Of a stretch of DNA of 64,000 bases, positions 2,584 to 4,357 are shown piece by piece; the first letter of the stretch is position 1; the number at the start of each line of letters is the position of its first letter. Origin of the DNA: Shigella phage SH7; sequence record KX828711; one strand, 5' to 3'. Under the pieces are notes generated by a model. That model did no database searches, was not told the origin of the DNA, and saw only the letters and a program-made list of their open reading frames with translations. The position numbers and the translations under genes were made by a program.

Positions 2584-2619
2584 CTTATTTCCTGTTTTAA
2601 TTCGTGGTTTTAATATACT

Positions 2620-2627
2620 TATTTATA
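2620..2627 (-). promoter_or_regulatory. late promoter TATAAATA
   Basis: Exact TATAAATA on minus strand about 35 nt upstream of the ATG at 2583. Confidence 0.55.
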
Positions 2628-2629
2628 CT

Positions 2630-2660
2630 AAAAAGCCCCAACCTTTCGGCTGGGGCTAAG
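2630..2660 (-). terminator. hairpin AGCCCCAGCCGAAAGGTTGGGGCT then T-run (near-identical copy of 2074-2105)
   Basis: Stem-loop followed by TTTTT on minus strand; closes the noncoding stretch downstream of the tRNA operon. Confidence 0.55.
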
Positions 2661-2960
2661 CCTTGCGGCAACCTTGTCGGGGTTCCACCTGCTAAGGCAA
2701 GTGTTTGTACGAAACGCCGGGATTCGAACCCGGTTACCAAGCAGTTGACGCTACTCAATATTTTTAAAAGGCCATATCTCGACCATATCCGAACGTTCCG
2801 TCAAAAACGCTACTCGGCTTACGGCAAAGATATTTCCTCGAATCGATAATTCGGTGCGCCGTTTCTGCTGTGATATAAGGGGACATTAACAGATCGTAAA
2901 GATTTGTTAATGCCAGTCCTTAAACAGGGAACATCAGTCCGACGACTTACCGGTAGCGAC
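2661..2960 (-). ncRNA. structured noncoding region, possible small stable RNA(s) or tRNA relic
   Basis: About 300 nt with no credible ORF between the 116-aa ORF and a terminator; contains a canonical tRNA T-arm (CCGGGTTCGAATCCCGG) without a full cloverleaf, an 8-bp hairpin at about 2884-2912 and a repeated GAGTAGCGT motif. Confidence 0.35.
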
Positions 2961-2968
2961 CCGGTTTC

Positions 2969-3319
2969 TTAATATTCTTTTAAAGCATCAATCTGTTCAC
3001 GACGTTTACGCCATAAATCAATTGCTTCATACGCAGATTCAGCATTTCGAATTGGACGGCATTTATATAAAGACTTGTGATTTTGATATTGCGTAGATAA
3101 CGGAATTTTATCTAAAAGGTCTTTACGTTCAAAGTATTCGTAACCATCTAAGCCAAATGAACGATTTTTGAGAAATTGCCAATGACCATATTCGTTTTCG
3201 ACATAAACATAATCCGCGTGTTGATAAAGCAAATTAATTACACGTTCAGAAATAATAGTGTCATTGTGATTAAAATAAAATGTTAAATCATGAACTACTA
3301 AATAAACATTACCTTTCAT
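2969..3319 (-). CDS. hypothetical protein (116 aa) immediately downstream of tRNA-Arg
   Basis: ORF track; GAGGAAA RBS; no separate promoter, so probably co-transcribed with the tRNA operon. Confidence 0.55.
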   Translation of the reverse strand: MKGNVYLVVHDLTFYFNHNDTIISERVINLLYQHADYVYVENEYGHWQFLKNRSFGLDGYEYFERKDLLDKIPLSTQYQNHKSLYKCRPIRNAESAYEAIDLWRKRREQIDALKEY

Positions 3320-3335: not shown

Positions 3336-3411
3336 TGGTCGAGGCAGTAGGGATCGAACCTACGACCTAGGACTTAGAAGGTCCTTGCTCTTCCTTCTGA
3401 GCTATGCCCCG
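3336..3411 (-). tRNA. tRNA-Arg (anticodon UCU)
   Basis: Hand-folded 76-nt cloverleaf: 7-bp acceptor stem, anticodon loop CUUCUAA, T-loop TTCGATC, CCA encoded. Confidence 0.8.
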
Positions 3412-3415
3412 TAAT

Positions 3416-3491
3416 TGGGGTGACCGATGGGAGTCGAACCCATGACTACGAGAATCACAATCTCGAGTTCTACCAACTGAACTACGGCCAC
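3416..3491 (-). tRNA. tRNA-His (anticodon GUG)
   Basis: 76-nt cloverleaf, anticodon loop UUGUGAU, discriminator C, CCA encoded; no encoded G at -1. Confidence 0.6.
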
Positions 3492-3604
3492 ATTAATACC
3501 TACTCCAACAATCAAGATGTCTTCACACGAAATTAAGAGAAGAGTGATCAGTTCAACCCCGATAATCGCGTCAAGTAGATATTAATGTGACAGTTGTCAC
3601 AAAT
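3492..3604 (-). other. 113-nt spacer inside the tRNA array with no cloverleaf; possible small stable RNA
   Basis: tRNA-sized gap between tRNA-Asn and tRNA-His; contains the inverted repeat TGTGACA-N2-TGTCACA next to the tRNA-Asn 3' end. Confidence 0.3.
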
Positions 3605-3680
3605 TTGGCGGACGTGATAGGATTCGAACCTATAACCAATCGCTTAACAGGCGATCGCTCTGCCATTGAGCTACACATCC
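3605..3680 (-). tRNA. tRNA-Asn (anticodon GUU)
   Basis: 76-nt cloverleaf, anticodon loop CUGUUAA, T-loop TTCGAAT, CCA encoded. Confidence 0.75.
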
Positions 3681-3684
3681 AAAT

Positions 3685-3771
3685 TGGTGGGGAGTGATGG
3701 AGTCGAACCACCCGAGTCGCAATGACAATGGATTTACAGTCCACACCGCTACCTCTACGGGATAACTCCCC
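3685..3771 (-). tRNA. tRNA-Tyr (anticodon GUA), long variable arm
   Basis: 87-nt type II cloverleaf, anticodon loop CUGUAAA, acceptor GGGGAGT/ACTCCCC, CCA encoded. Confidence 0.7.
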
Positions 3772-3784
3772 TTAATTCTTAATT

Positions 3785-3859
3785 TGGTGGCCCTAGGTGG
3801 AATTGAACCACCATCTGGCGATTATGAGTCGCTTGCTTGAACCTTCCAGCTACAGGGCC
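3785..3859 (-). tRNA. tRNA with CAU anticodon (Ile lysidine-type as in T4, or Met)
   Basis: 75-nt cloverleaf, anticodon loop CUCAUAA; sits at the position of T4 tRNA-Ile in the conserved order. Confidence 0.7.
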
Positions 3860-3860
3860 T

Positions 3861-3936
3861 TGGTGCTGATTGACGGAATCGAACCGCCGACCTTCTCATT
3901 ACAAGTGAGTTGCTCTACCTACTGAGCTAAATCAGC
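3861..3936 (-). tRNA. tRNA-Thr (anticodon UGU)
   Basis: 76-nt cloverleaf, anticodon loop CUUGUAA, CCA encoded. Confidence 0.8.
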
Positions 3937-3941
3937 AAAAC

Positions 3942-4031
3942 TGGCGGAGGCAATAGGATTTGAACCTATGAGTCGCCGGAGCGACTGCCGGTTTTCAAGA
4001 CCGGTGCATTAAACCACTCTGCCACGCCTCC
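3942..4031 (-). tRNA. tRNA-Ser (anticodon UGA), long variable arm
   Basis: 90-nt type II cloverleaf GGAGGCGTGGCAGAGTGG..., anticodon loop CUUGAAA; matches recalled T4 tRNA-Ser. Confidence 0.85.
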
Positions 4032-4033
4032 AG

Positions 4034-4107
4034 TCTCCATACAAGGATTTGAACCTTGGACCTCCTGATCCCAAATCAGGCGCTCTACCAAACTGAGCTA
4101 CACGGAG
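4034..4107 (-). tRNA. tRNA-Pro (anticodon UGG), CCA not encoded
   Basis: Cloverleaf CTCCGTGTAGCTCAGTTTGGTAGAGC..., anticodon loop UUUGGGA. Confidence 0.85.
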
Positions 4108-4117
4108 TAAATTAAAT

Positions 4118-4191
<74 letters not shown>

Positions 4192-4196
4192 AAATT

Positions 4197-4283
4197 TGGT
4201 GCGAGAAGTGGGACTCGAACCCACAAGGAAATCATTCCGCAGCATTTTAAGTGCTGTGCCTTTACCAATTTGACCATTCTCGC
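4197..4283 (-). tRNA. tRNA-Leu (anticodon UAA), long variable arm
   Basis: 87-nt type II cloverleaf GCGAGAATGGTCAAATTGG..., anticodon loop CUUAAAA, CCA encoded. Confidence 0.85.
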
Positions 4284-4284
4284 G

Positions 4285-4357
4285 CTGGGAATAAAGGACT
4301 CGAACCTTTGCATCCTGGAATCAAAATCCAGTGCCTTACCAACTTGGCTAATTCCCA
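4285..4357 (-). tRNA. tRNA-Gln (anticodon UUG), CCA not encoded
   Basis: Cloverleaf TGGGAATTAGCCAAGTTGG..., anticodon loop UUUUGAU. Confidence 0.85.

Follow-up and report, generated by a model that had tools for sequence, protein, structure and literature searches.

Bacteriophage T4 makes two small stable RNAs, species 1 (gene rnaC) and species 2 (gene rnaD), which have been known since the 1970s. RNA sequencing (RNA-seq) of T4-infected cells identified both as late RNAs, RNAC and RNAD, "of yet unknown functions" (PMC9697503, published in 2022), a result that was validated by northern blotting, for which an RNAC probe is described (PMC9697503). Here we describe the corresponding region of Shigella phage SH7 (sequence record KX828711), from which a 64,000-nucleotide (nt) stretch of DNA, hereafter the window, was analyzed at positions 2661–2960 and their surroundings. 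An original prediction, made from the DNA letters, had described these positions as one structured noncoding region downstream of a transfer RNA (tRNA) operon and carrying an orphan tRNA T-arm. The source phage is a Tequatrovirus, a T4-like phage, and the genes of the interval lie on the minus strand. Judged by alignment and position, the interval holds the orthologues of two known T4 genes, rnaC and rnaD. We regard it as highly probable that it comprises two separate small stable noncoding RNAs, the rnaD and rnaC orthologues, at the tail of the tRNA operon on the minus strand. This is a rediscovery: in a T4-like genome, rnaC and rnaD are ordinary, textbook T4 features.

A megablast search with a 500-base query around the interval matched 761 phage records, nearly all of them T4-like phages of Escherichia, Shigella, and Yersinia. 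Under the match, several curated records annotate rnaC, or rnaC together with rnaD. We aligned the annotated regions of T4T, RB33, and Kha5h with the window to map the boundaries of the two genes, which placed them as follows:

Positions 2708 to 2846, minus strand: rnaC, orthologue of T4 species 1 RNA, 139 nt, mapped from the T4T, RB33, and Kha5h annotation.
Positions 2853 to 2973, minus strand: rnaD, orthologue of T4 species 2 RNA, about 121 nt, mapped from T4T and RB33.

The SH7 rnaC is 97.1% identical to that of T4T over 139 of 139 nt and 98.6% identical to those of RB33 and Kha5h; rnaD is 87% identical to T4T and 89% identical to RB33. The order from rnaD to rnaC, the strand, the trailer, the terminator, and the place at the distal end of the tRNA cluster all match T4T, RB33, and Kha5h. 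SH7 and T4 differ in the distal hairpin of rnaD and at three wobble positions in hairpin II of rnaC. Among the readings first offered for the region, that of a small stable RNA derived from tRNA and akin to T4 species 1 and 2 was therefore essentially right, the SH7 RNAs being orthologues (97% and 87% identity) in the same genomic position. What had been taken for one element is in fact two independent RNA genes followed by a conserved trailer. As to its extent, structured RNA does occupy 2661–2960, but it reaches on to about 2973 and overlaps the stop codon of a 116-amino-acid (aa) open reading frame (ORF). All three segments form more stable folds than shuffled controls do, with energies of −48.8 kcal/mol for rnaC (z = −3.06), −36.0 kcal/mol for rnaD (z = −3.05), and −38.2 kcal/mol for trailer plus terminator (z = −3.82). 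In a scan of Rfam 15, neither rnaC nor rnaD matched any family at gathering score, and a relaxed scan returned noise only, plus one weak match to transfer-messenger RNA (tmRNA; 14.7 bits against a gathering score of 47).

To examine the fold of rnaC, we gathered homologues from a phage collection, IMG/VR, and metagenomes, built a covariance model, and aligned 26 matches, of which 24 were distinct. These 24 sequences span Tequatrovirus, Mosigvirus, Moonvirus, Winklervirus, Kanagawavirus, Karamvirus, Gelderlandvirus, and Marfavirus (at least eight genera), and the SH7 rnaC scores 155 bits against the model. In the modeled fold, rnaC is a tRNA-shaped four-way junction with the following parts:

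Positions 2839 to 2845, minus strand: 5′ strand (CGAUUCG) of the terminal, acceptor-like stem of seven positions, pairing with 2710 to 2716 (CGUUUCG).
Positions 2769 to 2838, minus strand: long arm of about 70 nt, with the terminal loop UUGACG at 2799 to 2804.
Positions 2735 to 2760, minus strand: hairpin II, a 10-base-pair (bp) stem with the loop CGUCAA at 2745 to 2750.
Positions 2717 to 2733, minus strand: T-arm, CCGGG-UUCGAAU-CCCGG, abutting the terminal stem as in tRNA.

An A/U-rich linker joins the long arm to hairpin II. Across the 24 distinct sequences, standard pairs fill 96.1% of the cells that the fold assigns to helices, compared with 38–50% when the partners are slid by one to three columns. 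Compensatory change is seen in 31 of the 50 pairs, and none of 500 shuffles reached the observed values. An independent combination of MAFFT and RNAalifold on 17 rnaC sequences returned the same fold (45 pairs, 25 with compensatory change). The support extends over the individual helices. In the terminal stem, whose consensus across homologues is CGRUUCG with CGUUYCG, the third pair (R:Y) covaries without exception, being G-C in 16 sequences and A-U in 7. The central pair of the T-arm is U-A in 13 sequences, G-C in 9, and U-G in 1. Hairpin II shows compensatory change in 9 of its 10 pairs, and helices 3 and 4 of the long arm in 18 of 21. Karamvirus, Gelderlandvirus, and Marfavirus carry a long arm of unrelated sequence in which pairing is kept, and the RNA measures 138–142 nt even with the long arm of different sequence. 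Conservation of structure in related phages had been named beforehand as a test of the original prediction, and the folds of both rnaC and rnaD are indeed kept with compensatory changes.

The T-arm-like element that had drawn attention to the region, CCGGGTTCGAATCCCGG at 2717–2733 on the minus strand, is thus the 3′ part of rnaC. Its T-loop core, GGTTCGAATCC at 2720–2730, is one of nine matches in the window when one mismatch is allowed; the other eight lie inside 8 of the 11 tRNA genes called by ARAGORN. Shuffled sequence gave a mean of 0.61 matches, and 0 of 100 shuffles reached nine. The accompanying statement that the element has no matching acceptor arm proved wrong: the very 5′ end of rnaC lies 115 nt upstream and supplies the partner strand (2839–2845, pairing with 2710–2716). 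Because the terminal stem formed by the ends of rnaC directly adjoins it, the T-arm is not an orphan. The repeat noted in the same region, GAGTAGCGT, does occur twice, at 2748–2756 and 2807–2815, with both copies in rnaC. We considered the repeated GAGUAGCGU motif as a conserved feature and rejected it, as the copies differ in structural role and neither PG7 nor the Karamvirus-type arms retain the motif.

Compared with tRNA, rnaC has the acceptor and T-stem arrangement, with a 7-position terminal stem contiguous with a 5-bp T-stem and the loop UUCGAAU, although two of the seven positions are U-U. It lacks the cloverleaf: a 70-nt arm replaces the D-arm, and the other arm is a 10-bp stem with an invariant 6-nt loop. 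Neither ARAGORN nor Rfam calls a tRNA within 2600–3000, and a 7-nt anticodon loop or a D-arm is absent from every aligned rnaC homologue. Several observations weigh against a close tRNA likeness or call for caution with the fold. The five Watson–Crick pairs of the terminal stem flank two invariant U-U oppositions; the 3′ end is encoded in SH7 as U-ACA-A and not as NCCA; and the T-loop sequence is not kept in Kanagawavirus (UGCAUGC) and Winklervirus (UGCAUC), so that strict tRNA-like recognition of rnaC is uncertain. The 24-sequence alignment was fitted to the model structure, which somewhat inflates its pair counts, and the expression evidence for both RNAs comes from T4 and not from SH7.

Does rnaC nevertheless descend from a tRNA, or is it the remains of one? 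A degenerate tRNA gene and a recombination scar from tRNA gene turnover had both been suggested for the region. With its canonical T-arm and acceptor-like stem, rnaC might indeed be a decayed tRNA gene, retained together with rnaD because both are embedded in the operon; the 95-nt "tRNA-Met" that ARAGORN reports in the PG7 homologue and the weak Rfam tmRNA match of 14.7 bits would fit such a history. Relics drift, yet the RNA is 83–100% identical across many genera. Its non-tRNA helices are kept by compensation, its loops are invariant, and no homologue has a 7-nt anticodon loop or D-arm, while rnaD is devoid of tRNA features altogether. The length of 138–142 nt in every genus examined, the compensatory changes in most helices, and the invariant loops contradict the degenerate gene and the recombination scar alike. 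We therefore hold decay to be very improbable; tRNA ancestry of rnaC is plausible, with the RNA as it stands under purifying selection.

One architectural parallel is tmRNA (RF00023), which likewise combines a terminal stem with a T-arm and has the remainder inserted where the anticodon arm would be, and to which the weak Rfam match points. In contrast to tmRNA, rnaC has no G3-U70, tag ORF, or pseudoknot series, and mostly no CCA. The idea that rnaC is a chargeable tRNA or a tmRNA-like molecule that enters the ribosome could draw on that match (E = 9e-4 in an 801-nt search), on the acceptor/T-arm minihelix, and on the Marfavirus versions, which end U-CCA. The match, however, lies far below the gathering score of 47, and ARAGORN finds no tmRNA; the cmscan alignment uses the internal CGGAACG strand, whose pairing is broken, with A opposite C, in at least five genera; and the third pair of the terminal stem is A-U or G-C, so there is no G3-U70, just as there is no tag ORF and, in most versions, no CCA. 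Entry into the ribosome as a charged molecule is, in our estimate, even less probable than decay. We had ourselves considered pairing of the internal CGGAACG (2792–2798) with the 3′ end, which would give a tmRNA-like G3-U70 stem in agreement with the Rfam tmRNA alignment. This pairing was rejected because it becomes A opposite C in Moon-, Winkler-, and Kanagawa-type sequences, whereas the true 5′ end covaries perfectly.

A second parallel is the mascRNA/MEN-beta tRNA-like family (RF01684), whose members also carry an acceptor-like stem on a T-arm, have no decoding anticodon arm, and are cut by RNase P from a long or polycistronic precursor. The family is not homologous to rnaC, which matches it at 14.2 bits (E = 9) through the T-arm alone. 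Compared with RF01684, rnaC has double the length, a 70-nt arm where a D-arm would be, and a candidate kissing-loop pair, and its excision by RNase P is a proposal. As a separate observation, Marfavirus rnaC (genomes L036 and L110) ends CG-U-CCA, with a canonical discriminator and CCA, and all other versions end CG-U-ACA. The Marfavirus CCA end may bear on tRNA-like recognition of the 3′ end.

The long-arm loop UUGACG (2799–2804) and the hairpin II loop CGUCAA (2745–2750) of rnaC are perfectly complementary. In 22 of 24 sequences, among them the ones whose long arm has been replaced, neither loop varies; in the Marfavirus clade they change together to UUGGCG and CGCCAA, turning an A-U into a G-C pair. 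From this sequence pattern, a kissing loop between the two is probable. When viral and metagenome contigs were scanned, with the search restricted to the non-T4-type 5′ motif, only these two states of the loops appeared and no third. Three considerations temper the proposal: the covariation is a single evolutionary event and hence suggestive; the pairing could be intermolecular instead of intramolecular; and, in the modeled fold, loops that meet within one rnaC molecule would require a sharp bend of the long arm.

We applied the same approach to rnaD, with an alignment of 21 distinct sequences. The covariation-supported model suggests a 5′ hairpin followed by a long irregular rod with near-invariant internal loops and an exchangeable tip:

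Positions 2949 to 2965, minus strand: 5′ hairpin H1, ACCGG, loop GUCGCUA, and CCGGU, with compensatory change in three of five pairs.
Positions 2940 to 2946, minus strand: GUCGUCG, one strand of the long-range stem P2, pairing with CGGCGCAC at 2854 to 2861 according to RNAalifold.
Positions 2934 to 2939, minus strand: internal loop GACUGA, opposite GAAA at 2862 to 2865.
Positions 2884 to 2912, minus strand: distal hairpin, an inverted repeat that forms the variable tip of the rod.

In the consensus fold, 96.8% of cells are paired, as against 33–51% with slid partners; 10 of 24 pairs show compensatory change, and again 0 of 500 shuffles reached the observed values. Changes in H1 occur in the two copies carried by Escherichia phage A5-4, for example from A-U to G-C and from C-G to A-U or U-A. 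P2 is paired in 98.6% of cells and nearly invariant, so covariation says little about it. The GACUGA side of the internal loop is invariant in 21 of 21 sequences; in the opposing GAAA, all three A's are kept throughout, and the one change is that of the leading G to A, in Kha5h. This conservation makes the GACUGA/GAAA loop a candidate binding or tertiary motif. Beyond it lies a 4-bp helix that opens with a U-A pair in 13 sequences, an A-U pair in 6, and a G-C pair in 1. Two readings of the loop were tried and rejected. In a hammerhead-like reading (CUGAUG...GAAA), the base after CUGA is one that covaries with its partner (U-A, A-U, G-C); a kink-turn (K-turn) reading leaves two extra A residues between GA and the stem.

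The conserved core of rnaD starts near 2967, and the TAA that ends the 116-aa ORF (2969–2971) lies in the 5′ leader. Both the 5′ core (2921–2967) and the 3′ core (2853–2877) are nearly identical to T4; the distal arm alone differs. That arm contains the 8-bp hairpin reported earlier, CATTAACA with TGTTAATG, which is present and constitutes the rnaD tip. An inverted-repeat scan delimits its arms as 2884–2895 and 2901–2912, of 12 nt each and 92% complementary. Homologues have three unrelated sequence types of tip, each with a self-complementary stretch as judged by eye, and because the three types do not align, the tip appears unpaired in the RNAalifold consensus.

These patterns also bear on whether the interval encodes small proteins, as many GenBank "hypothetical protein" coding sequences (CDSs) imply. 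No credible ORF had been expected, and none was found: the ORFs that overlap the interval measure only 20–81 aa, and the open frame varies between homologues. A coding role could appeal to the overlapping ORFs of 40, 53, and 81 aa and to the CDS annotation in many related records. However, the longest open frame shifts strand and phase from one homologue to another, and length differences of 1–3 nt break the frames. Substitutions are paired helix compensations and not third-codon-position changes, and the curated T4, RB, and Kha5h records annotate RNAs. We give protein coding next to no chance. Independently, the "hypothetical protein" CDSs that many related records place over rnaC and rnaD are a recurrent annotation error. 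In PG7 (an Enterobacter phage), ARAGORN and GenBank call a 95-nt "tRNA-Met" at 605–699, inside the rnaC homologue. We rejected it as a real tRNA, as the ARAGORN call is lenient and the "anticodon stem" is mostly unpaired. A "tRNA-Met" annotation in Moon that falls under the match was set aside as well, since it overlaps the rnaC homologue by 3 nt only. A curated rnaC/rnaD family model would fix this recurrent false CDS and tRNA annotation.

Both RNAs are embedded in a tRNA transcription unit, the elements of which are as follows:

Positions 3336 to 4357, minus strand: cluster of 11 tRNA genes, upstream on the same strand, from ARAGORN and Rfam.
Positions 2969 to 3319, minus strand: 116-aa ORF (phrog_3355) between tRNA-Arg and rnaD; no Pfam hit; T4 has no ORF here.
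Positions 2847 to 2852, minus strand: 6-nt spacer GAAUUA between rnaD and rnaC, from alignments and flanks.
Positions 2658 to 2707, minus strand: conserved 3′ trailer, 50 nt, with three small hairpins.
Positions 2634 to 2657, minus strand: intrinsic terminator with a 10-bp stem (seven G-C pairs), a GAAA loop, and a TTTTT run.

In T4, nothing separates rnaD from the CCA end of tRNA-Arg, whereas in SH7 the 116-aa ORF lies between tRNA-Arg and rnaD. The same order, with rnaD after a 116-aa ORF, is found in Kha5h and BW-1. The absence of a tRNA CCA directly 5′ of the SH7 rnaD is context variation and no argument against orthology. In other genera, an AAUUA-type spacer lies between a tRNA CCA end and rnaC, and the GAAUUA spacer of SH7 matches it. 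In Moon, PG7, fGh-Ecl01, Melville, and ZX14, rnaC follows a tRNA by 5–7 nt, and in the first four it also precedes the next tRNA by 6–11 nt; this spacing equals that among the tRNAs themselves. The trailer hardly varies among 12 distinct versions; it is joined to rnaC or, in Dhakavirus-type genomes, where rnaC is missing, straight to rnaD. Modeled as three hairpins, it is probably a processing region. The terminator that had been predicted next to the interval was found at 2634–2657 on the minus strand, Kha5h annotates one at the equivalent position, and it ends the tRNA/rnaD/rnaC transcription unit.

The identity and folds of rnaC and rnaD come from tool results; for their processing route and function, we infer the following. 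One minus-strand transcript would run from the tRNAs through the 116-aa ORF, rnaD, rnaC, and the trailer to the terminator, and the tRNA-processing machinery of the host would excise rnaD and rnaC from it. The acceptor/T-arm mimic of rnaC would let RNase P and 3′ exonucleases set the ends and would keep the RNA stable: the RNase P cut would fall at the base of the terminal stem, and the 3′ side would be trimmed by exonucleases up to that stem. Such a tRNA-like release is suggested by the placement of rnaC in a tRNA slot and by its 12-position acceptor/T-arm stack. With the 116-aa ORF between tRNA-Arg and rnaD, the 5′ end of rnaD must arise from an mRNA-RNA junction. The RNase P cut in rnaC is proposed on geometric grounds, and the annotation puts the 5′ end one base outside the terminal stem, which speaks against this route. 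An RNase III cut just 3′ of species 1, described in T4, would fit a trailer of this kind.

The two RNAs do not always occur together. Genomes of the Moon-, Karam-, Gelderland-, and Marfavirus types carry rnaC but lack rnaD at that position; those of the Dhakavirus type carry rnaD and lack rnaC. In an unclassified Providencia straboviral genome, rnaD is present at 93–95% identity. Escherichia phage A5-4 (Vequintavirinae), from a family unrelated to T4, has two rnaD copies, at 1547–1665 and 2458–2557, one of full length and one with a shortened tip. Each copy directly follows a tRNA, which points to horizontal transfer along with tRNA clusters. From these sequence comparisons, rnaC and rnaD appear to be independent modules that move with tRNA clusters and that once moved across phage families. 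Searches of 5,426 complete genomes of E. coli and of 72,556 PLSDB plasmids found no similar DNA, and by this comparison the RNAs do not seem to be of host origin. When 185,579 species genomes were scanned with a pattern for rnaD, the single match was a chance one in GC-rich coding sequence; a loose pattern, used to look for further loop variants or wider relatives, gave about 60 chance matches, all rejected by the covariance model. In Erwinia phage Virsaitis27, we noted an 84-nt gap (945–1028) between tRNA-Ile and rnaC that ends ...CUCCCACCA; this end resembles a tRNA 3′ end, yet ARAGORN calls no tRNA there.

A recent evolution experiment provides a link between rnaD and growth on a particular host. 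In the T4-like phage BW-1, the sole mutation common to three lines evolved on the strain ECOR34 maps to rnaD, and virulence on ECOR34 rose from 0.17 to 0.98 (PMC12685909, published in 2025). We found that BW-1 (OR125554.1) has the same layout as the SH7 window and that the single-nucleotide polymorphism (SNP), T to C at 164264, corresponds to A to G in the RNA. It falls in the rnaD distal hairpin, equivalent to about 2884–2912 in SH7, and changes CACAG-UUUUA-CUAUG to CACAG-UUUUA-CUGUG, restoring a C-G pair. The restored pair is the state in two natural relatives (L015 and L031), and the predicted minimum free energy of rnaD shifts from −25.9 to −31.0 kcal/mol. PMC12685909 did not give this base-pair reading of the SNP.

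The BW-1 result, together with the distribution, bears on a purely cis-acting account, by which the structured segments stabilize or punctuate the 3′ end of the tRNA/ORF116 transcript and the excised RNAs are by-products. On this account, it is natural that rnaC and rnaD always lie inside or at the end of tRNA transcription units and that the strongly conserved trailer and terminator accompany whichever of the two RNAs is present. The viability of T4 deletions in the tRNA region fits it as well. A barrier, however, needs stable helices and not near-invariant loops (UUGACG/CGUCAA, GACUGA/GAAA, the A-rich linker) or a fixed length of 138–142 nt. Moreover, rnaC and rnaD occur independently and at differing positions in tRNA arrays, discrete RNA species accumulate late in T4 infection (PMC9697503), and the pair-restoring change in rnaD is the only mutation common to the three BW-1 lines on ECOR34, where virulence went up. 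We judge a cis-only role improbable, and we regard both it and decay from tRNA genes as less likely than a host-dependent role.

That rnaC and rnaD act as RNAs is suggested by their near-invariant unpaired loops, fixed length, and independent mobility. They might bind a host or phage factor in a host-dependent manner, either as mimics or decoys of tRNA or to counteract a host barrier, a reading we advance tentatively. A more specific version, which we find rather doubtful, would make rnaC a distinct structural class of phage tRNA mimic, whose acceptor/T-arm minihelix provides for tRNA-type maturation and stability and whose two arms, locked by a six-base-pair kissing loop, offer a surface that titrates a tRNA-binding factor of host or phage. 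In this version rnaD, which has moved between Straboviridae and Vequintavirinae, would determine growth on particular E. coli strains, and both RNAs would be host-range or counter-defense factors. The strain-specific role proposed for rnaD draws on the base-pair-restoring mutation, the only shared change in the adaptation of BW-1 to ECOR34. Phage-encoded tRNAs that counter tRNA-targeting defenses offer a functional analogy only. Like rnaC, they are phage encoded, sit in tRNA clusters, and have a tRNA shape, and the host-dependent benefit is theirs; in contrast to rnaC, which cannot decode, they are complete decoding tRNAs, so that the likeness to rnaC and rnaD stays one of analogy. Two further points count against a host-dependent role. 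T4 remains viable on laboratory hosts when the tRNA region is deleted, which would make any function conditional. In addition, papers from 2010, 2022, and 2025 (PMC3014915, PMC9697503, and PMC12685909) all call the function of rnaC and rnaD unknown. If true, an RNA-based host-range or counter-defense role would answer a 50-year-old T4 question, and the folds, the kissing-loop candidate, and the reading of the BW-1 SNP make the question of function somewhat more testable.

Two neighboring features were also noted. Within the tRNA cluster, a 114-nt spacer between tRNA-Asn and tRNA-His (3492–3605, minus strand) has no ARAGORN or Rfam call. It folds better than shuffled sequence (z = −2.98). A search with the segment that comprises this spacer and tRNA-His matched 366 phage records; in 214 the match covers 80% or more of the segment, and 121 of all 366 belong to Klebsiella phages. 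The spacer may be another unannotated stable RNA. On the other side of rnaC, near-identical terminators at 2079–2102 and 2634–2657 (minus strand) bracket a 157-aa ORF at 2110–2583 (phrog_2280, function unknown), upstream of which lies a late-promoter-like TATAAATA on the minus strand at about 2619–2626. RB33 carries this 157-aa ORF cassette and T4T lacks it, a pattern suggesting that recombination between the two terminators inserted or removed it.

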